DNA of 64,000 nt from Pseudomonadota bacterium (lineage in GTDB: Bacteria > Pseudomonadota > Alphaproteobacteria > Caulobacterales > Caulobacteraceae), in assembly GCA_041182245.1 (NCBI GenBank), contig JBEGNZ010000010.1, forward strand, positions 3,252 through 67,251, in the 5' to 3' direction. The position numbers were made by a program, and so were the translations under genes. Every line of letters begins with the position of its first letter. Position 1 is the stretch's first letter. Of this stretch, positions 1 to 16,805 are shown piece after piece. Below the pieces are notes generated by a model. The model saw only the letters and a program-made list of their open reading frames with translations, made no database searches and was not told where the DNA came from.

Positions 1-1772
1 GGTCAACCCGTGAAGCGACCAACCAAAACTCCTTGCAGGCTGACCTTTCCGCGCTGAACTCTGATTTTACGCGCGTGACCTCTGACAACCGAATCGTCCT
101 CAATGGCCTCGTCGGCCTGGGTCTAGAGTTCGGTGACAATAAGCTGCGTTGGACCAATCTTTATATTCGCGACACTCTGAAACATACACGCCTTGGGCTT
201 GGAAACCGGAACCAAACCACTGTCGATTTTATGCAGCAGGACACGTCCTGGTATGAGCGTGAATTGATCGATAGCCAAATCGTGGGCGAGTTCAATCTCA
301 ATGACAATCTGAGCGTTGATGTTCGTGTTGCCTACGCCAACTCAAAACGTAACTCTCCGTACGAACTGACCTTCGAATATGTCCGCACCAATGTGAAGGC
401 GGATCCTTACGGGGCCTATTTCGTCAACCGTTTGAACAATGGTAACGGCGGTGATGCTGTGATCAGCTTCTCCGAGCTGGATGAGAAGCTTTGGTCCGGC
501 GGGGCCGATGCCACCTACAGGCTGAGGGATGGGCTGAGCGGTACAGTCGGTTACGCCTTTGCTGACACTGAGCGCACAAGTTCACGCCGGGACTTCCAGT
601 TCCAAGCCCCCAGCAACTTCCCGCGCGGTGTCGATATGTTCCGCCCTGACCTGCTTCTGGCCCCCGCAGTGATTGAAGCTTTCGGCATAGCGTTGGTTGA
701 AACCAACGAAGGTAACCCAGCCTTCCTTGCGACCCTTCGGAATCAGGCGGGCTACGTCAAGTTTGACTATCAGATGACTGACTCGTTGCAGCTCAATGCC
801 GGCATTCGTTATGAAACCGCCGAGCTAGAAGTTTCACCGATCAAGATCTTCAACACCGCAGGCGCCTCTCTGGCGGGTACAGCGCTCGAAGAAAGCTATT
901 GGCTGCCAGCAGCCACATTGACCTGGCAATTGGCCTCGGACATGCAGCTTCGCGGCAACCTGTCTAAAACCATTGCCCGTCCGCAGTTTCGTGAATTGGT
1001 TTACCAGTTCTACTTCGACCCCGACAGCAACCGCATGTATCGCGGTAACCCGTACTTGGTCGATAGTGAGCTGACCAACGCCGAAGCCCGTTTTGAATGG
1101 TACTTTGACACCGATCAGCGTGTCACGGTCGCCGCTTTCTATAAGCAGATCACCAATCCGATTGAATCCTTCGTCGCCGGCGATGACTTCACGACCAGCT
1201 ACGCCAATGCGCCGCAGGCCAACCTCATTGGTGCCGAGTTTGACGCTCAGAAATATTTCGACCTCTCCGCCCTTGACGGTGATTTCTGGGCCTCACGCCG
1301 GATCGTAGTGAACGGTAACTACACCTACACAATGTCGGAATTGAAGGTCGATAAGAACGACTCCATTTCAGTCTTTGCCTCCTCATCGAAGAACGCCACT
1401 GACTTCTTTAAGGATGGTGCTCAGATGGCCGGCCAGTCGGATCACATTTTCAACGTCCAACTTGGACTTGAAGATCGTGATGCCCTTTCACAACAGACCT
1501 TGATGTTCAACTATGCCAGCAAGCGCGTTTCGAGCCGTGGTCTGGTCAATTCAGGGCAGCCTGACATCTACGCCTATCCCGGCTTCTCGCTGGACTTTGT
1601 CGCACGTCAAGGCGTGGCTGTTGCAGGCCGCGATGTTGAGCTAAAGTTCGAGGCGCGCAATCTGACAGGCCGTAATAACGAAGAATATCAGATTGTTGGT
1701 AGTAACCGCGTTGACATCAATACCTACAAGATGGGTAGCCTGATCTCAGTGTCGGCCCAGATGAAGTTCTAA
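1..1772 (+). CDS. TonB-dependent outer-membrane receptor, C-terminal ~580 aa (5' end lies upstream of the window)
   Basis: The frame is open from the window edge; the track ORF 33..1772 starts at an internal TTG. Long barrel-type sequence ending ...LISVSAQMKF, with the terminal aromatic residue typical of TonB-dependent receptors. Confidence 0.8.
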   Translation, partial: STREATNQNSLQADLSALNSDFTRVTSDNRIVLNGLVGLGLEFGDNKLRWTNLYIRDTLKHTRLGLGNRNQTTVDFMQQDTSWYERELIDSQIVGEFNLNDNLSVDVRVAYANSKRNSPYELTFEYVRTNVKADPYGAYFVNRLNNGNGGDAVISFSELDEKLWSGGADATYRLRDGLSGTVGYAFADTERTSSRRDFQFQAPSNFPRGVDMFRPDLLLAPAVIEAFGIALVETNEGNPAFLATLRNQAGYVKFDYQMTDSLQLNAGIRYETAELEVSPIKIFNTAGASLAGTALEESYWLPAATLTWQLASDMQLRGNLSKTIARPQFRELVYQFYFDPDSNRMYRGNPYLVDSELTNAEARFEWYFDTDQRVTVAAFYKQITNPIESFVAGDDFTTSYANAPQANLIGAEFDAQKYFDLSALDGDFWASRRIVVNGNYTYTMSELKVDKNDSISVFASSSKNATDFFKDGAQMAGQSDHIFNVQLGLEDRDALSQQTLMFNYASKRVSSRGLVNSGQPDIYAYPGFSLDFVARQGVAVAGRDVELKFEARNLTGRNNEEYQIVGSNRVDINTYKMGSLISVSAQMKF

Positions 1773-1859
1773 GCCCTAAAGGGTCACAGACCCTCGTTCG
1801 GCATCGACCGAGCGGGGGTGTTTGACCGGGGTGAAGGGCGGTATAGCGCCCGTTAAGGA

Positions 1860-1900
1860 CTATGACAGCGGCTTGGAATTTAATCCGCACACTGTCATAG
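1860..1900. promoter_or_regulatory. 9-bp perfect inverted repeat CTATGACAG-N23-CTGTCATAG upstream of virB1
   Basis: Read directly: 1860..1868 is the reverse complement of 1892..1900. Confidence 0.6.
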
Positions 1901-1925
1901 AACTGACGTGAAGCTGAGCTAATAG
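1892..1925 (+). promoter_or_regulatory. Candidate PhoB-dependent promoter (Pho-box-like direct repeat plus -10 hexamer)
   Basis: CTGTCATAGAACTGACGT (1892..1909) matches 15/18 positions of the consensus CTGTCATAWAWCTGTCAY. TAATAG at 1920..1925 follows after a 10-nt gap. The virB1 ATG is at 1968. Confidence 0.4.
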
Positions 1926-1967
1926 CGCCATGTCGGTGCTGCCAGCACCCCACCGAAAGCTGCAGTT

Positions 1968-2597
1968 ATGCGCAATCTTGAACCCAATTCTAAGAGCTGC
2001 GTGACAGTTTGCATACAGGGCGCTCTGGTTGGTGCCTTGGCGGGTCTTGCTCTGCTATCCTCTGCGGTCAGTGCTCAAGCGGATGTGATGGAACTGGTCA
2101 CCAATGGCTTTGTCTGGGTGGCGGGAGCCCCCAAGTCCGTCGCGCCAGACCTGGTAGAGGTCGGCCCGCGCGCCGAGCGCAGTTTCACCCATGTCTCAGA
2201 TACGGCGGGTCCCGCAGCCTGGCGCGCTCACATCGCGATGCTCGCGAGAAAATACGATATTAGCCCGGCGCTTTTAGAGGCGGTCGTTTGGCAAGAAAGC
2301 CGTTGGCAAACCAACGCTAGGTCCAGCGCGGGAGCCCATGGGCTGGCGCAGCTGATGCCTGGAACGGCGCGCGAGATGGGCGTAGATATTACCAACCCGC
2401 TGTCGAACCTCGAAGGGGGCGCGCGCTATTTAAAGATCCAGTTGGACCGGTTCGATGGCGACATCGAAAAGGCCTTGGCCGCCTATAATTCGGGGCCGAG
2501 CCGTGTGCTCAGCGCGGGGGGCATTCCTCAAATCCCAGAGACGAAAGCTTATGTTTCTGCGATAATGTCTAGGCTTGCTGAATCTGTGCGGAGGTAG
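1968..2597 (+). CDS. virB1: VirB1-like lytic transglycosylase (SLT domain) with signal peptide
   Basis: N-terminal hydrophobic signal ending SAQA. SLT motifs LLEAVVWQESRW and AHGLAQLMPGTAREMG...AYNSG. First gene of the virB-ordered operon. Confidence 0.85.
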   Translation: MRNLEPNSKSCVTVCIQGALVGALAGLALLSSAVSAQADVMELVTNGFVWVAGAPKSVAPDLVEVGPRAERSFTHVSDTAGPAAWRAHIAMLARKYDISPALLEAVVWQESRWQTNARSSAGAHGLAQLMPGTAREMGVDITNPLSNLEGGARYLKIQLDRFDGDIEKALAAYNSGPSRVLSAGGIPQIPETKAYVSAIMSRLAESVRR

Positions 2598-2602
2598 TCA
2601 AA

Positions 2603-2911
2603 ATGAAAAAATCTCAGCTTTTAGGGCTTGTTGCGTCCATCGCTTCCTTTCCCCTTTCGGCCTATGCACAGGTCACCACCAACCCTCAGGGGTCTGGTCC
2701 GATCGTTGCCGCCCTCAATTGGATTCAAGGCACCCTGTTGGGCAGTGTCGCTACCGCAATCGCCGTCATGGCTGTGGCGACGGTCGGCTTGATGATGCTG
2801 ACGGGTCGGATGAACTGGCGATTTGGCGCGACCGTCATATTGGGCTGCTTCATCCTGTTCGGCGCGGGGGCCATCGTGTCCGGGATCAGATCCGCCGCGG
2901 CCCTCGGTTAA
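2603..2911 (+). CDS. virB2: VirB2/TrbC-type T4SS pilin
   Basis: 102 aa with a signal peptide ending AYAQ, followed by two hydrophobic helices. Position between virB1 and virB3. Confidence 0.8.
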   Translation: MKKSQLLGLVASIASFPLSAYAQVTTNPQGSGPIVAALNWIQGTLLGSVATAIAVMAVATVGLMMLTGRMNWRFGATVILGCFILFGAGAIVSGIRSAAALG

Positions 2912-2917
2912 GCGACG

Positions 2918-3199
2918 ATGGACCTCATCCGTTTTCCAGTACACCGCGCCCTTGCCCGTCCGCAGATGTTTGCGGGCGTGACCTATAGCTATTTCATTAT
3001 CAATGCGGCGGTGACGACCGAGGTCTTTCTCATCACAAAAAGCTTCCTAGCCCTCCCGGTCGCGGTGTTGCTGCATGTTATTGGTTATCTTGCCTGCCTG
3101 CGGGAACCTCGAATTTTCGACCTTTGGTTGACCAAGGTGAGCCGTTGCCCACGGATTTCAAACTGGCGGCGCTGGCGCTGCAACAGCTACGGAACTTGA
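2918..3199 (+). CDS. virB3: VirB3-like T4SS inner-membrane protein
   Basis: 93 aa with the motif ...RPQMFAGV... and one hydrophobic hairpin. Sits immediately before virB4. Confidence 0.75.
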   Translation: MDLIRFPVHRALARPQMFAGVTYSYFIINAAVTTEVFLITKSFLALPVAVLLHVIGYLACLREPRIFDLWLTKVSRCPRISNWRRWRCNSYGT

Positions 3200-3208
3200 G
3201 GAGCGACC

Positions 3209-5626
3209 TTGGTGGGCATGTTTGGCACTATGGGGCGTAGGAGCCGTGAGGCTCTAGCCGGGGACCGCTTGCCCTATGCGAAGCTGCTCGATGACCATGT
3301 CGTCCTGTTGCGCGATGGCTCGGTCATGATGAGCCTCTTGGTGCCCGGCATCAGCTTTGAGACGGCCGATAGTGCCGAGTTAAACGCCTTGGCCGCAACG
3401 CGTGAGCTCATGCTCCGCAGCACTCTGGACGCCCGCTTCGTTCTATATCACCACGTCATCCGCCGCCGCGTTCAGACCGACTTGCGGGGGACATTTGCTG
3501 ATCCCCTGACAGCCCATATTGATCAGTGCTGGGATAACAAACTTTCCAGCGGTGCCCTGTTTGTCAATGATCAGTTCGTAACCCTGCTGCGGCGCCCGGC
3601 TCGCGGGAAGACCGGTTGGGTGGAACGTGTTGCCCGTCAATTGACGCGGTCTCAAGATCGCTCTGAAGGCATCCAAGCCAAACCGCAAGATGTTCGTGAC
3701 CTGCGGGCCGCGGCCAATGCCATGGTGACAACCCTGGGGACCTATGGGGCGCGGCCCTTAAGCAACTATCAGGGCAAGTCCGGGGCCTGTTCGGAAATAT
3801 TGGAGTTTCTCTCCGCCCTCTATAATGGGGAAATGAAACCGGTTCGGCGGCCGTTCGAAGGCACCATGATTGCCAATATGCTGCCCTATAAACGCATCAG
3901 TTTTGGCGCGGACGCCCTTGAACTGAAGGGCGCGGGCAGCAGCAGTTTTGCGGCCTTGGTGTCTCTAAAGGACTATCCCGACACGACCTCGCCGGGCCTG
4001 ACCGACTCCTTGCTCCGAATTCCCTGTGAGATGGTGCTCACAGAAAGCTACGCGCCATCAGATCGCCAAGTGTCTCGTGAACGGATTGACTTGGCCGTGC
4101 GCCGTCTAAGGTCAGCCGATGAAGAGGCCATGGCTGAGCGGGCAGAGCTTCATGCGGCCCGTGATGCCCTGGGATTGGGCGCGGTTGGATTTGGCGACCA
4201 CCATCTGTCCGTCCTCGTGCGCTCTGACTCCCTTGAGACCTTAGATGCGCTGACGGCAGCCTGCGCGGCGGCGCTCGGTGATGCCGGCGCTGTTGCGGTC
4301 CGCGAAGATATGAACCTCGAGCCCGGCTTTTGGGGGCAGATGCCGGGCAATGAATCGCTGATCGTGCGGCGATCCTTGATCTCATCGGGCAATATGGCCT
4401 GCTTTGGCTCGCTTCACGGCTTTGCCTTGGGCCAGGCCGAGGGGAACCATTGGGGTGATCCTGTGGCAGTCCTTGAGACCACCAGCGCAACGCCCTTTTT
4501 CTTCAATTTCCACAATGGCGATCTGGGTAACTTCACGGTCATTGGCCCGTCGGGTTCCGGCAAGACCGTCGTCATGAATTTTCTAGCAGCTCAGGCCCAG
4601 CGGTTTGAGCCACGCACCGTCCTGTTCGACAAGGACCGGGGCGCAGAAGTCTTTATTCGTGGCATTGGCGGTCGCTATAGCCGGATCTCTGCGGGCGAGC
4701 CGACGGGGTTTAATCCACTGGCCCTTCCAGACAGCCCGACCAATCGCGCCTTTCAACGCGACTGGCTCGCTGTTCTGCTCGATGCCAAGGGGTCAGAAGA
4801 GTTGGCCACCATCGCGGCGGCGGTTGATGCGGCCTATGCCAATGATCCCAAACTGCGCCGCCTGTCCCATTTTCAAGAATTGCTGGCCGGTTCGCGCAGG
4901 CCGCAACCGGGCGATCTCGCCTCTCGACTCGCCGCTTGGGTCGGCGAGGGAGAGTTTGGCTGGCTATTTGATCATGCCGAAGACCTTCTAGACCTGTCTG
5001 CCAAGACCCTTGGCTTTGATATGACGAGCCTTCTGGAGACGCCGCGTCTGCGCACGCCGGTGATGATGTACCTGTTCCATCGGATCGAGGAGCGGTTGGA
5101 TGGTCACCCGACCCTGATCCTGATTGATGAGGGCTGGAAGGCCTTGGACGATGAGGTCTTTGCCGCCCGCATTCGCGATTGGCTCAAGACCCTTCGTAAG
5201 CGCAATGGCCTTGTGGGTTTCGCGACCCAATCGGCCCGTGACGCGCTCGATAGCCGCATATCCACGGCGTTGGTTGAGCAGACGGCGACCATGATCTTCA
5301 TGCCCAATGCCAGAGCGCGTGAAGAGGACTATTGTGAGGGATTTGGTCTCACGCTGCATGAACTCGACATCATCCGCAATCTGCCCGCCCACAGCCGCTG
5401 CTTCTTGGTGCGCCAGCCCGATGCCTCGGTTGTGGTTCGGCTGGATCTGTCCTCAATGCCCGAACTGCTCACGGTCCTTTCCGGTCGGGAAACAACCGTC
5501 AGGCAATTGGATCAGCTTCGAAAGCAGGTCGGCGACGCGCCAGAGGCTTGGTATGAGGCCCTCACCGGACATCCGTGGCCCGGCGACGCTTCCCATTGCG
5601 CCGTCCGACCGGAGGCGCGTCAATGA
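3209..5626 (+). CDS. virB4: VirB4 T4SS ATPase
   Basis: 805 aa. Walker A GPSGSGKT and Walker B-like TLILIDEGW. GAGGAG Shine-Dalgarno 6 nt before the TTG at 3209 (GTG 3212 and ATG 3218 are alternatives). Confidence 0.9.
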   Translation: MVGMFGTMGRRSREALAGDRLPYAKLLDDHVVLLRDGSVMMSLLVPGISFETADSAELNALAATRELMLRSTLDARFVLYHHVIRRRVQTDLRGTFADPLTAHIDQCWDNKLSSGALFVNDQFVTLLRRPARGKTGWVERVARQLTRSQDRSEGIQAKPQDVRDLRAAANAMVTTLGTYGARPLSNYQGKSGACSEILEFLSALYNGEMKPVRRPFEGTMIANMLPYKRISFGADALELKGAGSSSFAALVSLKDYPDTTSPGLTDSLLRIPCEMVLTESYAPSDRQVSRERIDLAVRRLRSADEEAMAERAELHAARDALGLGAVGFGDHHLSVLVRSDSLETLDALTAACAAALGDAGAVAVREDMNLEPGFWGQMPGNESLIVRRSLISSGNMACFGSLHGFALGQAEGNHWGDPVAVLETTSATPFFFNFHNGDLGNFTVIGPSGSGKTVVMNFLAAQAQRFEPRTVLFDKDRGAEVFIRGIGGRYSRISAGEPTGFNPLALPDSPTNRAFQRDWLAVLLDAKGSEELATIAAAVDAAYANDPKLRRLSHFQELLAGSRRPQPGDLASRLAAWVGEGEFGWLFDHAEDLLDLSAKTLGFDMTSLLETPRLRTPVMMYLFHRIEERLDGHPTLILIDEGWKALDDEVFAARIRDWLKTLRKRNGLVGFATQSARDALDSRISTALVEQTATMIFMPNARAREEDYCEGFGLTLHELDIIRNLPAHSRCFLVRQPDASVVVRLDLSSMPELLTVLSGRETTVRQLDQLRKQVGDAPEAWYEALTGHPWPGDASHCAVRPEARQ

Positions 5627-6795
5627 GCCAGTGTACCGCCGTTCTGGACGCTGCATCGACGGGGGTCGCACCGGCTCTACGGGCTGTAGACTGTATGAGC
5701 GCGGAGGTGACTTCGGCGGCCTTCACCAATCTATTCGGCTCTAATGGTGCTCTGGTTCCCGCGCTGACCCTAGTCCTCACCCTCTATATCGCGCTCTTTG
5801 CTATTGCCCTGCTCACCGGTCGTTCGAAGATCGGGATCAGCACCCTTACCCCTCGCATGATCACCTTGGGCGTCGTCTTGACCTTTGCGACCAGTTGGGC
5901 GGCCTATCAAAGCGTGGTCTGGAATCTCGCTGTTGGCGCGCCGGACCAGATTGCCAGTGCTCTATTGGGGGTTCGCGGATCGGCGACTCAGCTCTTTGCT
6001 GACAAGATTGATATACTTTTCAACGTCATTACCGAGACGGCCCAAACGGTTGGTGGTCCTGGCGCGCGGCCCACGCTGCAGGGGGCCTTCACGCCGGTCA
6101 ATCTGATGTGGCTGGCGGGCATGTTCTTGATGCTGGGCACGGTCGGTATATTGGTGACAGCGCGGATTGCCTTGGCGGTGTTGTTGGCCGTGGGGCCTGT
6201 CTTTGTGACCTTCATTCTGTTTAACGGAACACGGGGCCTATTTGCCGGATGGCTGAGGGGCGTGATCCTGACCGCCATCACCCCGCTGTTTGCGGTGCTC
6301 GGTGGCGGATTGATGATCGAGTTGGCGACCCCGATCGTGGTTGCCCTTCGCGCAAGTGAGGTTCTTGATCCGAGGGCGGCCATGGCCCTGTTTATTTTCT
6401 CCATCGTCCATTGTGCGCTCATGGCCCTCGGCATCAGCGTAGCGTCAGCGATGGTTTCCGGATGGCAGGTCTTTGGAACGGCCAACGCGTCCAACGGCGA
6501 ACAGGCGAGCGGTCTAAGGACCGACCAATCTGTCGGTGGCGCCAATAACGCCTATGGGGCTTCGACGGCGGCGGCACTGTCTCGCAGTCAGAGTTTGACG
6601 GCCAGTGTGATTGCCGCCAATGCCGTTGGCGGATCGAGTGCGGCGGCGAGTGCAACCACAGCAACGAACCGAACTATCGTCAATACGATCACAGGGACAG
6701 GTTCCGCGATCGGCTCGGGAGCACCAGCCAGATCGCGTGGAATCGGTAGCCGGTTTGCCAGCCGCCCCCCTGTCTCTCGGGAGTTCATAAGATGA
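5623..6795 (+). CDS. virB6: VirB6/TrbL-family polytopic T4SS membrane protein with an Ala/Ser/Gly-rich C-terminal tail
   Basis: Multiple hydrophobic segments. The ATG at 5623 overlaps the virB4 stop (ATGA), so I prefer it to the track start at 5575. The tail from about 6480 is low complexity. Confidence 0.8.
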   Translation: MSQCTAVLDAASTGVAPALRAVDCMSAEVTSAAFTNLFGSNGALVPALTLVLTLYIALFAIALLTGRSKIGISTLTPRMITLGVVLTFATSWAAYQSVVWNLAVGAPDQIASALLGVRGSATQLFADKIDILFNVITETAQTVGGPGARPTLQGAFTPVNLMWLAGMFLMLGTVGILVTARIALAVLLAVGPVFVTFILFNGTRGLFAGWLRGVILTAITPLFAVLGGGLMIELATPIVVALRASEVLDPRAAMALFIFSIVHCALMALGISVASAMVSGWQVFGTANASNGEQASGLRTDQSVGGANNAYGASTAAALSRSQSLTASVIAANAVGGSSAAASATTATNRTIVNTITGTGSAIGSGAPARSRGIGSRFASRPPVSREFIR

Positions 6796-7610
6796 AAATC
6801 TATCTCGCGCTGCTGGCCGCAACCCTGTCCCTGACCCTTGGCACCCCAGCCATGGCGAAGGATGCTCGGCTGGCAACCCGCCCCTATAATGCCGATGAGA
6901 TTGTGGTCTTGCCGGGACGTGTCGGTGTGCAAGCGACCATTATATTTGGCGATGACGAGCATATTGAAAATGTGGCCATCGGCGACTCAAACAGCTGGCA
7001 GGTGACGCCGAACAAGCGCGCGAATCTGCTGTTCGTAAAACCCTTGGCCGCCCAAGCCCAGACCAACCTAACGGTTGTGACCGATCGCCATACCTATCTC
7101 TTTGACCTGGTTGCCGGTTCAGGTGTGCCCCATTACGTCTTGCGCTTCACCTACCCAGATGCCGTCAAGGCCAAGGCTCTCGCCGTCGGGGCCATGAGCG
7201 CAGAAGAGGCCGAGGCCGCGAAAAATCCGAACGCCGTCAAGGGCGGACAGCCGCCCTCTGCCCTAAACTTTGCCTGGACCAGTAAGGGGAGCGCAAGAAT
7301 CTTGCCGACCCGTATCTATGACGACGGGGTCTCAACCTATCTCAGCTGGGCTAAGGGTCGTCCTGTTCCGGCCATCTTGCTTCGGGATGACAAGGGCGCA
7401 GAGGGCGCAACCAACTATGCGGTGCGTGGGGACCTGATCGTACTGGATAATGTACCCAAGGTGATTGTCTTGCGGGCGGGCATTGATGTGGCAACCTTGA
7501 AAAATCAAGGCCCCGTCCCGTCTGAAACGGCGTCGGCTGATCCAAATCCGCAATCGGCGACCGCGTCGGACGTCAAGCCGCCGCTACCGGCGGCTGATCG
7601 GGGGCAATGA
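6792..7610 (+). CDS. virB9: VirB9/TrbG-family T4SS outer-membrane core protein
   Basis: Signal peptide ending PAMA. Characteristic VirB9 N-domain pattern ...EIVVLPGRVGVQATIIFGDDEHIENVAIGDSNSWQVTP...LLFVKP...TNLTVVTDRHTYLFDL. ATGA overlap with virB6. Confidence 0.85.
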   Translation: MKIYLALLAATLSLTLGTPAMAKDARLATRPYNADEIVVLPGRVGVQATIIFGDDEHIENVAIGDSNSWQVTPNKRANLLFVKPLAAQAQTNLTVVTDRHTYLFDLVAGSGVPHYVLRFTYPDAVKAKALAVGAMSAEEAEAAKNPNAVKGGQPPSALNFAWTSKGSARILPTRIYDDGVSTYLSWAKGRPVPAILLRDDKGAEGATNYAVRGDLIVLDNVPKVIVLRAGIDVATLKNQGPVPSETASADPNPQSATASDVKPPLPAADRGQ

Positions 7611-8704
7611 CCATGTCTGGACCCTCTTCCCCGAACCCTCGCTTGACCTCTTCAGAGGATACAGATCCGCGCTCGGCCATGGGATCGAATGCGGCCGATC
7701 TGGCCACCCGATCTGTCCTGCCCCTTGTTGCCCATAAGGCGTCGGCTTCAGACGGACTTGGGTTGATATTGGGTATAGCCGTGATTGGGATCCTCGGGGT
7801 TGTGACCTTCTTGGGGGTCAATGGTGGCCGTCAAAAGCCAGCGCCCGAGCAGCCCGCGCCCGCGCAAGCCGTTGTTCCGGCACCCGTCGTGCAACCGGTA
7901 GAGCAGGCCCCGCCGGTCCCGGTTGAGGCCATCACCCCGCCGCCCGCGCCATTGCCGGTTCCTGCGCCAGCGCCGATTGGTATTGCCGGGCCTGCGGCAA
8001 ACCCCTTTTCGACGCCAACGGTTCTGTTCGATGCCAGCGCCCTGCCGCCGTCTATTGTACCGGGCGCTGGTCCAGCCGCAGCCTCCCCTGGCGGGCCAAA
8101 TGATGAGTTCGCCGCGCGGGTTGGCGGTGTTGGCGGCGGCAGCGCCATTGCTGCTGCAGGTATAAATCCCAAGGCCACCGTGACCCAGGGCACCTTGATC
8201 CCCGCGGTTCTCGAGACGGCGATCGATACGGATGTGCCCGGCTATCTTCGCGCCATCGTCTCCAGCGATGTGCGTAGTTTCGATGGAACAGTCGTCCTCA
8301 TTCCCCATTCTTCGCGCCTGATCGGCCAGTATAAGAGTGGCATGCAGGCGGGCCAAAAGCGCGCCTATGTCATTTGGACTCGGCTGATCCGCCCCGATGG
8401 CGTCTCGGTCAATATTGCTTCGCCTGCCGTTGGATTTGGCGGGGAGACCGGGCTTCCGGGTAAGGTCAATAACCATTTCTTCGAACGGTTCGGCTCGGCG
8501 ATGCTCCTATCGGTCATCGGCGGCATCTCCAGTTCGGGCAGCAACAATGCCACCGTGCTCATCGGCAGCCAGGCCCAATCGGCCGCCGCCGCCGCCGTTG
8601 GTCAGTCCGGTCAGATTGGTCCGACCATTCGCGTGCGCCAAGGCGAGCCCATTCGCGTCTTTACCGCCCGCGACCTCGATTTTTCGAAGGTCACAACCGA
8701 ATGA
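7607..8704 (+). CDS. virB10: VirB10/TrbI-family T4SS protein
   Basis: Cytoplasmic N-terminus, one TM segment (LGLILGIAVIGILGVVTFLGV), a Pro-rich linker, and a C-terminal TrbI-type domain (GTLIPAVLETAIDTDVPG...). ATGA overlap with virB9. Confidence 0.85.
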   Translation: MTMSGPSSPNPRLTSSEDTDPRSAMGSNAADLATRSVLPLVAHKASASDGLGLILGIAVIGILGVVTFLGVNGGRQKPAPEQPAPAQAVVPAPVVQPVEQAPPVPVEAITPPPAPLPVPAPAPIGIAGPAANPFSTPTVLFDASALPPSIVPGAGPAAASPGGPNDEFAARVGGVGGGSAIAAAGINPKATVTQGTLIPAVLETAIDTDVPGYLRAIVSSDVRSFDGTVVLIPHSSRLIGQYKSGMQAGQKRAYVIWTRLIRPDGVSVNIASPAVGFGGETGLPGKVNNHFFERFGSAMLLSVIGGISSSGSNNATVLIGSQAQSAAAAAVGQSGQIGPTIRVRQGEPIRVFTARDLDFSKVTTE

Positions 8705-9681
8705 GGGACGCCGTTCCGTTGATCCCGCGAAGCCCCTATCTGGATGCCTATCTGGCGCCTTTTCAGCCGTGGTTGGAAAAGCAAACTGTGACGGAAATTC
8801 TCGTCAACCGTCCAGGAGAGCTCTGGATCGAGGACGCAACATGCAAGGGCATGCAGCGTATCGAGGCGCCCAAGGTCGACGATATCTTGTTACAGCGGTT
8901 GTCTGAACAGGTCGCCCGCATCAGCCATCAGGGGATCAACCGCGAAAACCCCCTCCTGTCGGCCACCCTGCCCACCGGTGAACGGATCCAGCTTTGCGGT
9001 CCGCCCGCCACCCGCAGCCATTGGGCCTTGGCCATTCGGCGCCATCGGCTCTTGGATATTTCACTGGAATCCTATGATCCAGGTCCCCTTCAGCCGGTCG
9101 TGGACCATCCGCCAATCGATCCGTCCCTTGAGCCTATTCTGTTCTTGAGAGACGCCATTCTTCGGCGGCAAACCATTTTGATCTCGGGCGGGACATCCAC
9201 CGGTAAGACGACTTTTCTCAATTCAATGTTGCGCGAAATTCCGAGTGAAGAACGCGTGGTCCTTGTCGAAGATACGGCTGAGCTAAAGTTAGCGGGAGCC
9301 AACGGCGTTGGCCTGATCGCGGTCAAGGGCGAGACGGGCGAGGCGCGGATATCCACGGACGACCTGTTGCAAGCGGCCTTGCGCCTGCGACCTGACCGGA
9401 TTGTCTTGGGTGAGTTGCGCGGTCGCGAGACGGTGAGTTTCTTGCGCGCGATCAATACGGGCCATCCGGGCTCCTTTTCGACGATCCATGCCAATTCGCC
9501 GCGCGGAGCCTTAGAGCAGATCGCGCTTATGGCCATGCAGACCGGCATCGGCCTGACCCGGCGCGAGACCATTGAATATGCCGCCTCTGTCATTGATGTG
9601 GTTGTGCAGCTTGAGCGGCGCGACGGTCGACGCCAGATCTCGGCGCTAGCCTCTGCTCGAGATCTTGTTTCGCCGTCATAG
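8701..9681 (+). CDS. virB11: VirB11 T4SS traffic ATPase
   Basis: 326 aa. Walker A GGTSTGKTT, then ...VLVEDTAEL and GHPGSFSTIHA motifs. ATGA overlap with virB10. Confidence 0.9.
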   Translation: MRDAVPLIPRSPYLDAYLAPFQPWLEKQTVTEILVNRPGELWIEDATCKGMQRIEAPKVDDILLQRLSEQVARISHQGINRENPLLSATLPTGERIQLCGPPATRSHWALAIRRHRLLDISLESYDPGPLQPVVDHPPIDPSLEPILFLRDAILRRQTILISGGTSTGKTTFLNSMLREIPSEERVVLVEDTAELKLAGANGVGLIAVKGETGEARISTDDLLQAALRLRPDRIVLGELRGRETVSFLRAINTGHPGSFSTIHANSPRGALEQIALMAMQTGIGLTRRETIEYAASVIDVVVQLERRDGRRQISALASARDLVSPS

Positions 9682-9764
9682 CGACCACCGCGACTGCCCC
9701 TGCCTCATGGGGGCCGAACTTGAACTGTCTATCGGTTATTTCACGCCTCAAGAGGGAAGACTAA

Positions 9765-10808
9765 GTGATGAAAAACTATCTTGCCATGGCCGCGGCCGTC
9801 GCCCTGTTGCCCTCTGCCAGCAGTGCCCAGGCTGCACGGGATTATGTGTGGGCCGCGGGTTCCTCAACCCTTTTCCCCTTCTCCACGCGGGTTGCGGAAA
9901 ACTTTGCCAAAAAGACGGGCCGCAAGGCGCCGAAGGTCGAATCGCTGGGCACTGGCGGCGGCATCAAGCTGTTTTGCTCGGGTTCGGGTGAAGGCTTCCC
10001 AGACATTGCCAATGCCTCACGTCCGATGAAGCGCTCGGAATTTGACCAGTGCCAGAAGAAGGGCGTGAAGGATATCATCCAGCTTAAGATCGGCTTTGAC
10101 GGCATTGCTGTCGCCGTCGACAAGGATGGCAGCAACTATAATCTGACGACCCAAAATCTTTATCAGGGCCTTGCTGCCAATGTTGTGCGCAATGGCCAGT
10201 TCGTTAAAAACCCCCACAAAAAGTGGAGCGATGTTGCTGCTGGGCTGCCGACCAATCGTATCTTGGTCTATGGGCCGCCGCCCACCTCTGGCACCCGCGA
10301 TGCCTTTATCGAGCTAGGGATCGAAGCCGGAGCGCTGAAGTTCCCCGTTGCTGCGGCGCTGAAGGCTTCGAGCGAGCCTCAGTTTAAGGCCAAGGTTGAT
10401 CCCTTGCGTGAAGATGGTGGCTGGATCGATTCTGGCGAGAACGACAATGCCATCATCGGGACCCTGACCAAGACACCGGGGGCTATGGGCGTGTTCGGCT
10501 ATTCGTTCCTCGAAGAGAATGTCGACAAGGTCAAGGGTGCCTCGGTTAACGGTGTTCGTCCGACCGCCAAGAGCATCACGGATGGCACCTATCCCCTGTC
10601 TCGCTCGCTCTATATCTACGTCAAGAAGTCGATGATTGGTGTCACACCGGGCCTGAAGGAATTTGTCAGCGAATATGTGTCTGACGCAGCCACGGGTCGC
10701 GGCGGCTATCTGCAGGGTCGGGGCCTAATCATTCTGCCGCCCGCCCAGCACGAAGCCAATAAGGCCGCCGTGAAGACTCTCATGCCCATGAAGCGCCCTG
10801 CGGGCTAG
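9765..10808 (+). CDS. PstS-family periplasmic phosphate-binding protein (PBP type 2), orphan
   Basis: Sec signal peptide ending SSAQA. N-terminal motif WAAGSSTLFPFSTRVAENF, like phosphate-binding proteins. An ATG at 9768 is an alternative start. No pstCAB genes adjacent. Confidence 0.75.
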   Translation: MMKNYLAMAAAVALLPSASSAQAARDYVWAAGSSTLFPFSTRVAENFAKKTGRKAPKVESLGTGGGIKLFCSGSGEGFPDIANASRPMKRSEFDQCQKKGVKDIIQLKIGFDGIAVAVDKDGSNYNLTTQNLYQGLAANVVRNGQFVKNPHKKWSDVAAGLPTNRILVYGPPPTSGTRDAFIELGIEAGALKFPVAAALKASSEPQFKAKVDPLREDGGWIDSGENDNAIIGTLTKTPGAMGVFGYSFLEENVDKVKGASVNGVRPTAKSITDGTYPLSRSLYIYVKKSMIGVTPGLKEFVSEYVSDAATGRGGYLQGRGLIILPPAQHEANKAAVKTLMPMKRPAG

Positions 10809-10831
10809 GGTCAAGTTTGATTGAGACAAAC

Positions 10832-10863
10832 AGAAGCCCGGTTGCAAGAACAGCCGGGCTTCT
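10832..10863. terminator. Hairpin between convergent genes (possible bidirectional terminator)
   Basis: AGAAGCCCGG (10832..10841) pairs with CCGGGCTTCT (10854..10863) across a 12-nt loop. T-rich tract follows. Confidence 0.5.
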
Positions 10864-10897
10864 TGCTTCTATCGGTGGAGGGGCCGTGCGGGCTGGC

Positions 10898-12001
10898 CTA
10901 TTGCGGCGGCTGAGCCTTGCGCCTCAGGCGGGCCAGACGGCGAAGGCGGCGCCAGAAGCGGGCCTTTTCGGGCTCTGGATAGGGTTCCAGATTGCGGATG
11001 AATTCTTCGGTCGAGGCGCGCCAGCTATAGGTCAGGGCAAAGGCGCGAACATCCTTGCGGTCGAGCTTGAGGCAGTCAAGACAGGCCTGCTGCATGGCTT
11101 CAAGGCTTTCATCGGCCGCCAAGACCCCCGCGCCGGAGCCGGGAATGATGTCGATCGGACCGGGGGCTGGAAAGCCCGCGACAGGCGTTCCGCAGCCCAT
11201 GGCCTCAAGGATCACCAGGCCGAAAGTGTCGGTCAGGGACGGGAAGACAAAACAGTCTGCATCAGCAAAATGGGCGGCAAGCTCATCACCAAACTTAGCG
11301 CCGAGAAAGACTGCGCCGGGATATTTGGCCTCGAGCTCTTCGCGCTGAGGCCCGTCGCCGACAATGACCTTGGTGCCGGGAAGGTCCAGTTCCAAGAAGG
11401 TCTCGATGTTCTTTTCCACGGCAATTCGACCGACATTGAGCCAGATCGGACGGGGCAGGTCGCCATAAACCCCCTCGCGGCCATCCATGCCGATGGGACG
11501 GAAGAGGTCGGTGTCTACGCCTCGTGTCCAGGGCGAAATATTGTGAAAGCCCCGCGCCAGCAACTCGTCGCGAAAGGTCGGTGTGGCCACCATCAGGCGT
11601 CCTGACGGCTCGTGGAACCAGCGCATATAGGCATAGCCTGCGGCCAGCGGCAGGGGTACGCGGGCGGAGACATATTCAGGGAATTTCGTATGGTAGCTGG
11701 TGGTGAATGGCAGCTTCCATTCTAGGCAGATCCGACGCGCCGCCAGGCCGATCGGGCCTTCGGTGGCGATGTGGATCGCTTCGGGCTCAAAGGACTTGAA
11801 CCGGTCTTGAATGGGCTCATAGGTCCCGATGGCCAGCTTGATTTCCGGATAGGTCGGCAAGGGGAAGGTCTTGAACTGGTCCGGCGAGATCACATCGACC
11901 TGATGGCCCATGGCGCGGCACTCGGCGATGGTACGGCTGAGCGTCCGCACGACCCCATTGACCTGAGGCTCCCAAGCATCGGTGGCCAGCAAGATCCGCA
12001 T
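10898..12001 (-). CDS. Family 4 (group 1) glycosyltransferase, candidate Agt-type glycolipid synthase
   Basis: 367 aa. N-terminus MRILLATDAWEPQVNGVV and the ...FVFPSLTDTFGLVILEAMGCGTPV motif are typical of GT4. Start codon overlaps the stop of the upstream metallophosphoesterase (ATGA at 11999..12003). Confidence 0.8.
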   Translation of the reverse strand: MRILLATDAWEPQVNGVVRTLSRTIAECRAMGHQVDVISPDQFKTFPLPTYPEIKLAIGTYEPIQDRFKSFEPEAIHIATEGPIGLAARRICLEWKLPFTTSYHTKFPEYVSARVPLPLAAGYAYMRWFHEPSGRLMVATPTFRDELLARGFHNISPWTRGVDTDLFRPIGMDGREGVYGDLPRPIWLNVGRIAVEKNIETFLELDLPGTKVIVGDGPQREELEAKYPGAVFLGAKFGDELAAHFADADCFVFPSLTDTFGLVILEAMGCGTPVAGFPAPGPIDIIPGSGAGVLAADESLEAMQQACLDCLKLDRKDVRAFALTYSWRASTEEFIRNLEPYPEPEKARFWRRLRRLARLRRKAQPPQ

Positions 12002-12825
12002 CAGGCTATGGCTCGCCCGTTAAGGGCCGGACGCTCGGTTCGATCCGACCGGCGCTCTATCATCGACCACGACCGCATCTTGGCCCACTCCAACAGTTCT
12101 AGCCGTCCGTCCATATGTTCGACGAGGGCGGTACAGCTCTCCACCCAATCGCCGTCATTTATATAGGTGATGCCGTCAATATCACGCATCTCGGCCTTGT
12201 GAATATGGCCGCAGATCACCCCGTCAACACCGCGACGTCGAGCCTCATCAGCGACCGCACCTTCGAAGTTCTCGATGAATTGTAAGGCGTTCTTCACTTT
12301 GCCCTTCAGGAATGCCGACAGGCTCCAATAGCCAAAACCCATCTTTCGTCGCGCATGGTTGAACAGGGTGTTCAGCATAAGGATCGTTCTATAGGACCAA
12401 TCACCGAGGAAGGCGAGCCACTTGGCATGTTGGACGACGCCGTCGAACTCATCACCGTGGGTGACCAAGAAGGTACGCCCATCAACCGTCGTGTGGATGG
12501 CGTCGCGGGCGATCACCACCCCGCCAAAATGGACGCCGCAATAGTCTCGTGCGACCTCATCATGGTTGCCGGGCACATAGATCACCGCCGTACCCTTGCG
12601 GGCCATCCGAAGAACCTTTTGAACCACATCATTATGGGCCTGAGGCCAGTGCCAGCCGCCCTTGAGCTTCCAGCCGTCAATGATGTCGCCGATCAGATAA
12701 AGCCGTTCGCATTCCATACTGCGAATGAAGTCGAGCAGCAGTTCGGCCTGACATCCGCGCGTGCCCAAATGAACATCTGAAATGAAGACCGATTTAAAGC
12801 CAAGGATGGGGACGTCTGACGTCAT
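12001..12825 (-). CDS. LpxH/PlcP-family metallophosphoesterase (usually annotated UDP-2,3-diacylglucosamine diphosphatase; context suggests PlcP-type phospholipase C)
   Basis: Metallophosphoesterase motifs ISDVHLG, GDIIDGW, GNHDE, HGDEFD and GHIH. Translationally coupled to the GT4 gene. Confidence 0.8.
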   Translation of the reverse strand: MTSDVPILGFKSVFISDVHLGTRGCQAELLLDFIRSMECERLYLIGDIIDGWKLKGGWHWPQAHNDVVQKVLRMARKGTAVIYVPGNHDEVARDYCGVHFGGVVIARDAIHTTVDGRTFLVTHGDEFDGVVQHAKWLAFLGDWSYRTILMLNTLFNHARRKMGFGYWSLSAFLKGKVKNALQFIENFEGAVADEARRRGVDGVICGHIHKAEMRDIDGITYINDGDWVESCTALVEHMDGRLELLEWAKMRSWSMIERRSDRTERPALNGRAIA

Positions 12826-12850
12826 GAGGCGGTCCGTTGTGCAGGTCTGC

Positions 12851-12866
12851 TCAGCCCATGGGCAGA
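12851..12866. promoter_or_regulatory. Imperfect palindrome TCAGCCCATGGGCAGA (core GCCCATGGGC perfect), nested in a longer GGTCTGC...GCAGACC inverted repeat (12844..12868)
   Basis: Read directly. Lies in the divergent region between the metallophosphoesterase gene and the TetR gene. Confidence 0.4.
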
Positions 12867-13020
12867 CCCGTTCGACCTAAGCTGATTGCGTGTCTCTTTT
12901 GTGAAATTGCAGCCTTGGCCCCTTGCCGATTATGGCGGGGTTGGATCCGGCGTGTATGAACACTATCTAGCGCGGGGGCCTGCTTCGCGACGGTTGGTAG
13001 ATAGGCTATTGAAACGGCAG

Positions 13021-13662
13021 ATGAGCGACAGTGCAGAGATGAGCCGTTCAGCAAAGGACACCCCCAAGTCTGTTCGGACTCGGGTGCGCATACTCGACGC
13101 CGCCATGACCCTGTTCGCGGAAATCGGCTATCATGCCGCCAACAATGCTCGGATCGCTGAGGCGGCGGACCTGACGCGCGGGGCTATGCTCTATCATTTT
13201 GTCTCGCGCGAAGACCTGGTCGACGCCGCCATCGGTCACATCCAGACTCAGCGTAATGCCCTGTTTGAGGCAGCAGCAAAGGACATTGGTCCGGGCGAAG
13301 ATGTCAGCGAGCACGCCATCGAGTCCTACTGGCAACTGCTCCACACGGTGCCCTATATCGCCTTTGCGGAGTTGGAGGCTGTGGCCCGCACGGACGCAAC
13401 GGTTCGTGCCTGTCTGGCGACCGCGCAGGAGGCCTTTGATCGCGCGCAGATTGGCGGTCAGTCGACGGCGATGGTCAGTGCTGGAGCAGGTCCGAGGTTC
13501 CAAACAACCCGAGATTTGGCCCGTTTCATGCTGGAGGGTCTGGCACGCGGTGGCGTGACCTATGATCAGGAGGCGCGGACCGAACGGTTGCTGACCGTCA
13601 TTAAACGCGCCACCCACATGCTGAACCGTAAGGGGTCGGTGCAGGATCTTTGGCCAGACTAG
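13021..13662 (+). CDS. TetR-family transcriptional regulator
   Basis: HTH region RILDAAMTLFAEIGYHAANNARIAEAADLTRGAMLYHF. I prefer the ATG at 13021 to the track start at 12886. Confidence 0.8.
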   Translation: MSDSAEMSRSAKDTPKSVRTRVRILDAAMTLFAEIGYHAANNARIAEAADLTRGAMLYHFVSREDLVDAAIGHIQTQRNALFEAAAKDIGPGEDVSEHAIESYWQLLHTVPYIAFAELEAVARTDATVRACLATAQEAFDRAQIGGQSTAMVSAGAGPRFQTTRDLARFMLEGLARGGVTYDQEARTERLLTVIKRATHMLNRKGSVQDLWPD

Positions 13663-15641: not shown

Positions 15642-16805
15642 ATGAGTCGCGCCTCGCTCTTCAGCTTCTATGAGTTCTTTGCCGGGGGCGGGATGGCGCG
15701 TGCGGGGCTCGGTGCGGACTGGACCTGTCGCCTTGCCAATGACCTCGACCCAGCCAAAGCAGCCGCCTATCGCACCAACTGGGGTGAGGGGGACCTGATT
15801 GAGGCCAATGTCTGGGATCTTACCCCCGAGGACTTGCCCGGCACCGCCGATCTGGTCTGGGCCTCCTCTCCCTGTCAGGACCTCAGCCTTGCTGGCCCTC
15901 GCGCGGGCCTTTCGGGGCAAAGGTCTTCAGCCTTTTGGGGTTTTTGGCGGCTCATTGAGGCCCTAGATGAACAGGGCCGAGCGCCCGGCGTCATCGTTAT
16001 CGAAAATGTCGTCGGCCTTTTGACCTCGCGCGGTGGGCATGACTTTACCGCGATCTGTGAGGCCTTGGCGGCGCACAACTATCGGTTCGGGGCGCTCGAG
16101 ATCAATGCCGCCCATTTTGTACCCCAGTCTCGGCCCCGCCTGTTTCTCATCGCGACACGGTCTGAGGCGTTGGCCTGTGCAGAGCCCGGACCTTGGCATG
16201 GGACCAGCGCGCGCTTGGCCGCAGCACGATTGCCAGACGCCCTCAAACCCTTTTGGCGGTGGTGGCGTCTGCCTCAGCCTGACGCCCGAAATGCAGCCTT
16301 GGGCGACCTGCTCGAGCCTGATGATCAGGTGATTTGGCATTTGCCGGAACAGACCCAAGCCATACTCGCCCTCATGGCCCCGCTCCATCGCCACCGTCTG
16401 GAACAGGCTGCGGCGCAGGCGAGGCTTGATGGGCAGCGGCAGGTGGGGGCGCTCTTTCGCCGGACGCGGCAAGAGCAGGGCCGCACGCAGCAACGCGCCG
16501 AGGTGCGGTTTGACGGGCTAGCGGGCTGCCTTCGCACCGCGCGCGGCGGCTCCTCGCGTCAGACCGTGGTCGTGATTGATCCGACCTTCGAAGATGCTGC
16601 CGTGCGCACAAGGCTGATGTCGCCGCGCGAAGGGGCAAGGCTGATGGGACTGGGTGATGACTATATCCTGCCCAAAGGGGCGGCGGCGGCCTTAACCCTT
16701 GTCGGAGACGGGGTGGTGGTTCCGGTCGTGGCCTTTCTCGAACGACACCTGCTGCGTCAGATGGTGAAAGCCTGCCAATCTACAAGACAAGCGGCGCAAG
16801 ACTGA
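15642..16805 (+). CDS. dcm: DNA (cytosine-5) methyltransferase, apparently orphan
   Basis: Motif I FFAGGGM, motif IV SPCQDLS, motif VI ENV, motif VIII QSRPRLF, and C-terminal GDGVVVPV. Confidence 0.85.
   Translation: MSRASLFSFYEFFAGGGMARAGLGADWTCRLANDLDPAKAAAYRTNWGEGDLIEANVWDLTPEDLPGTADLVWASSPCQDLSLAGPRAGLSGQRSSAFWGFWRLIEALDEQGRAPGVIVIENVVGLLTSRGGHDFTAICEALAAHNYRFGALEINAAHFVPQSRPRLFLIATRSEALACAEPGPWHGTSARLAAARLPDALKPFWRWWRLPQPDARNAALGDLLEPDDQVIWHLPEQTQAILALMAPLHRHRLEQAAAQARLDGQRQVGALFRRTRQEQGRTQQRAEVRFDGLAGCLRTARGGSSRQTVVVIDPTFEDAAVRTRLMSPREGARLMGLGDDYILPKGAAAALTLVGDGVVVPVVAFLERHLLRQMVKACQSTRQAAQD

Follow-up and report, generated by a model that had tools for sequence, protein, structure and literature searches.

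The DNA analysed here is a stretch of 64,000 nt (hereafter, the window; all coordinates are window positions) from contig JBEGNZ010000010.1 of a Caulobacteraceae genome assembly (GCA_041182245.1). Close to its start, a gene for a PstS-family protein, designated pstS_b, follows virB11, the last gene of a minimal type IV secretion system (T4SS), on the same strand (Table 1). The virB11 gene terminates with TAG (9679-9681), and the pstS_b ATG at 9768 is preceded by a ribosome-binding site (RBS), GAGGGAAG, at 9752-9759. An earlier interpretation made without database searches (the sequence-only reading) had proposed that the PstS-like protein serves the T4SS as its cargo or accessory. Its description of the junction proved largely accurate: the gene is co-oriented with virB11, the spacer contains a single weak GC hairpin of 5 bp (9696-9714) without a T-tract, a clear terminator appears only after the pstS-like gene, the protein bears both the signal peptide (…SASSAQA) and the GSSTLFPF motif, and no pstC, pstA or pstB lies nearby. 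Only the spacer length had to be revised, as the 83 nt given there correspond to the alternative start GTG 9765, and the distance from the ATG is 86 nt.

RNA folding of the spacer gave z = +0.08 relative to shuffled sequence, so that it is not more stable than expected, and the spacers of three relatives did not fold better than their shuffles either. A consensus scan of 8500-13200 revealed neither a terminator nor a sigma-70 promoter in the spacer. Downstream of pstS_b, the 13-bp stem of the hairpin is followed by the U-rich tail UUGCUUCU, and this element could be a shared terminator for pstS and the convergent agt-like gene. Searching 1700-11000 against Rfam for a riboswitch or a leader gave no match at E up to 1. 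No homologues of PstC, PstA, PhoU or PhoB were detected in the 64 kb by tblastn, and a search of the window for PstB, OprP and PhnD returned nothing except a generic ATP-binding cassette (ABC) ATPase. The Pfam scan of 20 large open reading frames (ORFs) in the 21-64 kb part found housekeeping genes only, with no VirD4, relaxase or pst genes among them.

Table 1. Genes and other elements around the virB11-pstS_b junction.
Feature	Position	Strand	Basis or remark
TonB-dependent receptor (TBDR), 3′ part	3..1772	+	cut by window start; ORF; Pfam Plug/TonB_dep_Rec in L001 and L004 orthologues
Pho-box-like direct repeat CTGTCATAGAACTGACGT	1892..1909	+	59 nt upstream of virB1 ATG
virB1, SLT lytic transglycosylase	1968..2597	+	PF01464
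virB2, pilin	2603..2911	+	PF04956
virB3	2918..3199	+	PF05101, NF010474
virB4, ATPase	3209..5626	+	TIGR00929, 735 bits, above cutoff
virB6 (TrbL)	5575..6795	+	PF04610; true start probably near 5623 (L001, L004 gene calls)
virB9	6792..7610	+	PF03524, TIGR02781
virB10	7607..8704	+	PF03743, NF038091
virB11, ATPase, last gene of T4SS module	8701..9681	+	TIGR02788, 303 bits, above cutoff
virB11-pstS spacer, 86 nt	9682..9767	+	between virB11 stop and pstS_b ATG
pstS_b, 346 aa; signal peptide codons 1-22 (9768-9833)	9768..10808	+	PF12849, 151 bits; 9JWY, E = 1e-73; paralogue tree
Terminator-like hairpin, 13-bp stem	10832..10863	+	z = -3.3; RNA contig ends at 10825-10827, four runs
Glycosyltransferase family 4 (GT4), agt-like	10898..12001	-	Pfam; synteny with pstS across Caulobacteraceae
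Metallophosphoesterase, PlcP-like	12001..12825	-	weak LpxH similarity below cutoff; Pfam Metallophos in orthologues

The pstS_b product matches the PBP_like_2 family (PF12849) over residues 18-306, its score being well above the cutoff of 27 bits, while the score with TIGR00975 is 24.5 bits, below the cutoff of 205. NCBI names its relatives just "substrate-binding domain-containing protein", and the alphaproteobacterial PstS branch is known to be distinct (PMC12421899). By inspection, the N-terminus MKNYLAMAAAVALLPSASSAQA, followed by ARDY, has the layout of a typical Sec/signal peptidase I signal, comprising MK-, a hydrophobic core and a cleavage site between AQA and A, so that the mature protein would begin with ARDYVWAAGSST. 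The closest solved relative is the phosphate-bound SAR11 PstS 9JWY, which aligns with residues 24-338; the mature chain in the crystal begins at the position aligned to R24. Phosphate in 9JWY is held by S32, S33, T34, T61, S83, G174 and T175, and a Pro replaces the classical Arg (PMC12421899). All seven ligands are identical in PstS_b (S32, S33, T34, T62, S84, G175 and T176), and so is the Pro (P169). PstS_b is also 69-75% identical to the pstS products of Caulobacter and Phenylobacterium. Thus, PstS_b is predicted to bind phosphate with high affinity as a member of the alphaproteobacterial (CpPstS) type, and it is expected to be exported by Sec and to reside in the periplasm. An identity with the DING proteins was considered as well and rejected: PstS_b has no DINGGG N-terminus, and structurally it comes closest to bona fide PstS proteins.

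Like CpPstS of "Candidatus Pelagibacter" (9JWY, PMC12421899), PstS_b is a full-length homologue with the PBP_like_2 fold and the features of a Sec-exported periplasmic protein, but the overall sequence similarity is moderate, and phosphate binding by PstS_b is predicted. Moreover, the SAR11 gene belongs to pstSCAB, whereas the window pstS_b has no pstCAB within 64 kb, and PstS_b presumably hands phosphate to a PstCAB encoded elsewhere, as members of this family do. In C. crescentus, a separate PhoB-dependent promoter drives pstS, which is located away from phoR and pstCAB-phoUB (PMC11208175). Since pstS is unlinked there, an "orphan" pstS is the norm for the family and the normal state in Caulobacter; the label that the sequence-only reading had attached to the gene is correct in that pstCAB are absent nearby, but it does not denote a peculiarity. 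PstS_b thus resembles C. crescentus PstS in its family (about 70% identity to orthologues of Caulobacter spp.), in being unlinked from pstCAB and in its relation to the phosphate-starvation response. It differs in being a genus-specific second paralogue (b), the own Pho-box promoter of which appears to have been replaced by the 3′ end of the virB operon.

To place pstS_b in its genomic context, 84 pstS loci were collected, including those from Caulobacterales genome collections (the loci are numbered with L), and their neighbours were tabulated by tblastn. The usual island consists of the genes for ornithine decarboxylase and DS, a phnCDE-like ABC system, an OprO/P porin, pstS, (CNNM), a convergent GT4-metallophosphoesterase pair and a TetR regulator. 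This order was seen in C. mirabilis, in L089 and L003, and in Phenylobacterium (L008-L010); the C. mirabilis pstS orthologue in particular has the same phn-oprP-pstS ... agt-plcP neighbourhood. The GT4-metallophosphoesterase pair is organized like the Pho-regulated plcP-agt lipid-remodelling genes (PMC4796936). On the 3′ side of pstS, synteny between the window and the island loci of relatives is complete.

The pstS paralogue tree of close relatives comprises two clades, a and b. The a-type pstS is linked to oprP (L003, L007_a, L092_a), and the b-type adjoins the GT4 gene (the window, L001/L090, L004, L005/L091, L006 and L007_b). The two paralogues are 79-83% identical and flank a variable slot (L092:4866-5906 vs window 9768-10808; L007:6125-7165 and 10001-11041). 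In L092, where the TBDR is 97% and VirB2 100% identical to those of the window, the order is phnD, oprP, pstS_a, a gene for a 530-aa lipoprotein resembling ElpS of C. crescentus, TBDR, virB1 and so on. Judging by this locus, the T4SS module of the window genome lies most likely between pstS_a and pstS_b. In L007 both paralogues are present with an unrelated minus-strand TBDR gene between them, and the b side of L006 is arranged in the same way, although the L006 PstS shares 96-97% identity with those of the T4SS-bearing L001/L090. Because the b-type pstS of L006 and L007 has a different upstream gene and no T4SS, the space ahead of pstS_b is a variable slot, which the T4SS fills as one of several occupants. 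Strains of the L090/L091 type lack pstS_a and oprP, and an RNA contig joining L092 positions 3297 and 6021 represents this arrangement in nature.

Whether the virB11-pstS adjacency is conserved had been raised by the sequence-only reading, and the answer is negative: virB11 precedes pstS only in L001, L004, L005, L090 and L091, where every PstS shares at least 88% identity with the window protein. This is a narrow, species-level clade of uncultured freshwater Caulobacteraceae. Two other b-type loci, L006 and L007, have no T4SS upstream of pstS, and no virB neighbour was detected at about 75 other Caulobacterales pstS loci. Phenylobacterium, Novosphingobium and Sphingomonas have homologues of VirB11 (72-79% identity). 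The flank downstream of virB11 is visible in seven loci outside the clade, and there the T4SS is always followed by unrelated genes. These are cytochrome oxidase genes in P. deserti, arsC and an insertion sequence element in P. immobile, immediately adjacent convergent ppx and ppk1 in Novosphingobium panipatense (L140:11053-14825), a luciferase-like gene in L141 and a response regulator gene in L142; the flanks in L099 and L109 also contain no pstS. In P. deserti the T4SS is found at one locus, and a metagenome-assembled genome of the same assigned species (L008) has pstS in the phn context. When the T4SS-bearing and T4SS-free loci are compared, similarity begins about 25 nt before the pstS ATG, and this point is the putative junction of the T4SS module with the ancestral pstS context.

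The position of the junction bears on the regulation of pstS_b. In most relatives, a Pho-box-like repeat (CTGTCAT-N4-CTGTCAT, 3-4 mismatches) is located 50-90 nt upstream of pstS. In the 250 nt upstream of pstS_b, nothing comes closer to the repeat than a site with 5 mismatches at -226, inside virB11, and the spacer contains none better; likewise, the best upstream matches in the window clade have 5-6 mismatches and are far upstream inside virB11. Since similarity to the T4SS-free relatives starts only about 25 nt before the ATG, pstS_b appears to have lost its own Pho box. A half-site, CTGTCTA at 9725, was rejected as a Pho box, as it has no partner at the 11-bp spacing.

Taken together, the data make it quite probable that PstS_b is an ordinary phosphate-binding paralogue whose co-oriented gene is a passenger, probably co-regulated with the T4SS, and that the protein is neither a component nor a substrate of the secretion system. 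According to this interpretation, an uncultured genus of freshwater Caulobacteraceae would have a chromosomal phosphate-scavenging island with two pstS paralogues, pstS_b being the second. This island would comprise, in this order, the phnCDE-like ABC genes, oprP, pstS_a, the variable slot, pstS_b and the convergent agt-like and plcP-like genes, the slot being filled in the window clade by the ElpS-like lipoprotein gene, the TBDR gene and virB1, 2, 3, 4, 6, 9, 10 and 11. The module would end at virB11, the junction having left the RBS of pstS_b in place and removed its own Pho-box promoter. Because there is no terminator between virB11 and pstS_b, the latter would be expressed most likely by read-through from the virB operon, which has a Pho-box-like site upstream of virB1, with a possible contribution from a weak promoter near 9700-9720.

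Public freshwater metatranscriptomes, which contain sequences 93-95% identical to the window, support transcription through the junction. The sequence-only reading would have looked for read-through across 9682..9764, and assembled contigs cross the virB11-pstS junction in four runs (X1, 8949-10826; X2, 9549-9803; X3, 9514-9803; X5, 9465-9759), and the depths of the junction-spanning contigs are similar to those of virB11. The RNA contigs stop at about 10826, beside the terminator. The convergent agt and plcP genes have almost no RNA coverage, which argues against DNA carry-over. Thus, read-through from virB into pstS is likely, and an additional proximal start is possible. The fallback of the sequence-only reading, a Pho-regulon passenger in the virB transcript, is therefore the better-supported one, although the contigs that suggest co-transcription are unstranded and run X12, described below, behaves differently. 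Correlating virB with oprP/pstS_a expression in the metatranscriptomes was uninformative, as the sampled populations are without oprP-pstS_a. RNA depth over the TBDR gene is 12-24 in runs X5 and X12, whereas virB1-virB4 (1968-5600) are near zero in these two runs, which indicates that the TBDR gene is expressed separately from the virB operon.

Several observations weigh against the interpretation of pstS_b as an ordinary paralogue read from the virB operon. As to the protein, its score with NCBIfam TIGR02136 (155.5 bits) is below the cutoff of 206.6, and the partner PstCAB is encoded outside the window, so that the transport role is drawn from the family. As to the island, we infer pstS_a in this genome from L092, as the window begins inside the TBDR gene and pstS_a itself is not seen. 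As to transcription, the contigs are unstranded assemblies whose source strains are relatives with 93-95% identity, and contig depth reflects expression poorly. Run X12 has a pstS contig from 9719 onwards together with zero depth over virB11, and in X2 and X3 pstS is covered 2-3 times as deeply as virB11. Because of X12 and the higher pstS depth in X2 and X3, some independent pstS expression is likely.

These RNA data speak for the alternative that a promoter of pstS_b itself lies in the spacer or in the 3′ end of virB11, such that the virB operon functionally ends at virB11. Besides X12, X2 and X3, it draws on X4 and X9, where the pstS depth also exceeds that of virB11, and on a 45-nt block (9714-9760) which is well conserved among the T4SS-bearing relatives. 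We nevertheless consider this alternative rather unlikely, since the spacer reveals neither a sigma-70-like promoter nor a Pho box, has no terminator and folds no better than its shuffles, and since contigs span the junction in four runs at depths like those of virB11.

It is less probable still that PstS_b has diverged functionally from PstS_a, so as to bind another phosphorus oxyanion or an organophosphate, to discriminate against arsenate, or to serve another transporter such as the PhnCDE-like one. The b clade does evolve faster (71-75% identity to outgroup orthologues vs 75-81% for the a clade), and Caulobacter sp. FWC2 has a related tandem pstS pair behind an ars operon. Larger phosphorus compounds have been proposed to be accepted by the CpPstS-type pocket, in which Pro replaces Arg (PMC12421899). 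On the other hand, PstS_b keeps all seven phosphate ligands, and no b-specific change in the pocket was found, although none was looked for. Several pstS copies are also common in oligotrophs. In Caulobacter sp. FWC2 (L087:7535-12144), the ars operon encodes ArsR, a low-molecular-weight phosphatase-type ArsC, Acr3 and ArsC and is followed by the two tandem pstS genes, the products of which may be arsenate-discriminating phosphate-binding proteins. This strain was therefore discarded as an example of pstS in a housekeeping context.

That PstS_b is a periplasmic substrate or accessory of a coupling-protein-less T4SS, exported or displayed after Sec translocation in the manner of Ptl, is highly improbable, since the cargo or accessory proposal loses its only support when the virB11-pstS adjacency is not conserved in relatives, being confined to one narrow clade and missing in the equally close L006 and L007 and at the other Caulobacterales loci. 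A number of features speak for this proposal, namely the common strand, the 86-nt spacer without a terminator, the Sec signal, the lack of VirD4 in the window, the RNA contigs over the junction and the fact that both virB and pstS appear tied to phosphate limitation. There is also a precedent in Pseudomonas aeruginosa, where the Pho-regulated Hxc type II secretion system (T2SS) secretes a DING protein. The likeness to Ptl (the T4SS for the pertussis toxin) and Hxc (LapA, DING) lies in a machine without a coupling protein near a Sec-exported protein in the context of phosphate limitation. However, the substrate genes of Ptl and Hxc are conserved partners of their machines, whereas the adjacency in the window is lineage-specific and the PstS is canonical rather than DING. 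Furthermore, unrelated genes follow virB11 in the other lineages with a visible flank, PstS_b, its phosphate pocket being intact, does not stand out as a paralogue of the core pstS, synteny breaks between virB11 and pstS, and pstS RNA occurs without virB11 RNA. The idea of PstS_b as a T4SS cargo is thus to be dropped.

On its own, pstS_b, as the second pstS of a phosphate island, is a matter of routine annotation and of modest interest. What the locus does illustrate is the insertion of a large module that would have stripped a Pho gene of its own promoter and left it dependent on a foreign operon. A better lead is the T4SS itself, which belongs to a widespread chromosomal type without a coupling protein and VirB8 in Caulobacterales and Sphingomonadales and looks phosphate-regulated. 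Its genes are only virB1, 2, 3, 4, 6, 9, 10 and 11, tightly packed at 1968-9681 (+). The virB5, virB7 and virB8 genes are absent from the cluster, which is too densely filled with overlapping or abutting genes to accommodate them: there is no virB5 before virB6 and no virB8 after it. The full set of VirB1-B11 and VirD4 is therefore not present. Orthologous modules in several loci, including those of Phenylobacterium, have the same eight-gene composition; a few of them bear a short unassigned ORF at the virB1 position, and the Novosphingobium panipatense module has no recognizable virB1. The T4SSs described in the genome paper of Phenylobacterium zucineum are different and complete.

The Pho-box-like repeat CTGTCATAGAACTGACGT is the sole match to CTGTCAT-N4-CTGTCAT with up to 2 mismatches in the 64 kb, where about 0.4 would be expected on both strands. 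It is situated in the 195-nt gap between the TBDR gene and virB1 and is conserved in the clade. Sense-strand repeats occupy the equivalent place in independent lineages, with 2 mismatches in L128:6779, L138:2580 and L139:5509 and with 3 mismatches in L140:3652, L141:3806 and L142:3229. In total, the window clade and at least six independent lineages carry the repeat (TGTCAY, 11-bp spacing) at a distance of 40-60 nt ahead of their first virB gene, while L085, L086, L097 and L099 keep the TGTCAY half-site, with the second repeat being weaker. In the same genomes, the phnC-like gene is preceded by perfect Pho boxes. The neighbours of the T4SS likewise include phosphate genes: a complete pstSCAB-phoU-phoB operon and plcP-agt in L139, ppx-ppk1 in N. 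panipatense, an OprO/P porin gene in L142, and the phn-oprP-pstS / agt-plcP island in the window clade. These data suggest that the T4SS operon is controlled by PhoB or a PhoB-like regulator, for which the repeat is a candidate site with predicted binding. In the literature, we found nothing linking this minimal T4SS type to phosphate.

An atypical regulator of the OmpR family, about 40% identical to PhoB and with a partial receiver-domain match, is encoded beside many of the ElpS-like/TBDR(/T4SS) clusters: L139:12081-12848(-), L128:12091-12771(-), L142:11130-11828(+), L112:2770-3447(+), L108, L109, L111, L115 and L132. None was seen in the window clade. This regulator is an alternative candidate for binding the repeats upstream of virB.

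A further link to phosphate comes from the genes that precede the T4SS. The ElpS-like lipoprotein gene just outside the window and the TBDR gene (3..1772) form a conserved pair upstream of the T4SS. The lipoprotein of about 525 aa, encoded ahead of the TBDR, had no match in the Pfam scan and carries the precomputed annotation PF28492; in L139, its lipobox LAGC is at residues 17-20. In C. crescentus, ElpS (CC0170) is a phosphate-starvation-induced lipoprotein of about 50 kDa with the lipobox LAGC at residues 17-20; its gene lies next to that of the TBDR CC0171 and immediately upstream of gspC-N, and its release depends on the T2SS (PMC2996285). The T2SS beside elpS belongs to the PhoB regulon (PMC11208175). 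Thus, the C. crescentus cluster elpS (CC0170)-TBDR (CC0171)-gspC-N is like the window locus in that a lipoprotein gene and then a TBDR gene stand beside a secretion system, with Pho-box-like sites frequent upstream; of 29 loci, 13 have such sites with up to 3 mismatches ahead of the lipoprotein gene. The two clusters differ in the machine, which is a VirB-type T4SS without VirB5, VirB7, VirB8 and VirD4 in the window and a T2SS in C. crescentus. No C. crescentus entry was among the best 120 homologues of the lipoprotein, all at least 62% identical, and we infer from the published description only that it is like CC0170 and may be called ElpS-like.

The lipoprotein-TBDR pair was found in 41 loci (L092:6078-10434; L090:5185-9499; also in L100-L135 and L139-L142). 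Among the 56 loci with at least one gene of the pair, gspC-D-E-F-G..I are directly downstream in 15 and the minimal T4SS is adjacent in 16, and none has both; the gsp genes of L105 were confirmed with Pfam. The T2SS and the minimal T4SS therefore seem to be interchangeable partners of the pair. It is possible, if doubtful at present, that the minimal T4SS is a phosphate-starvation system driven by PhoB-type repeats and tied to the ElpS-like/TBDR pair in the place of the T2SS, with pstS_b captured as the last cistron; its likelier cargo or partner would then be the ElpS-like lipoprotein or a phosphorus-scavenging enzyme, not PstS. If true, this would be a T4SS dedicated to phosphorus acquisition and not to conjugation or the targeting of hosts or competitors.

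Two minor features of the region deserve mention. A C5 DNA methyltransferase gene at 15642-16805 (+) has no obvious restriction partner, and its synteny is kept in L001 and L003. Near the 5′ end of virB11 (window 8706), L001, L004 and the metatranscriptome strains bear a 30-nt insertion, which accounts for the VirB11 length of 336 aa in those strains vs 326 aa in the window.

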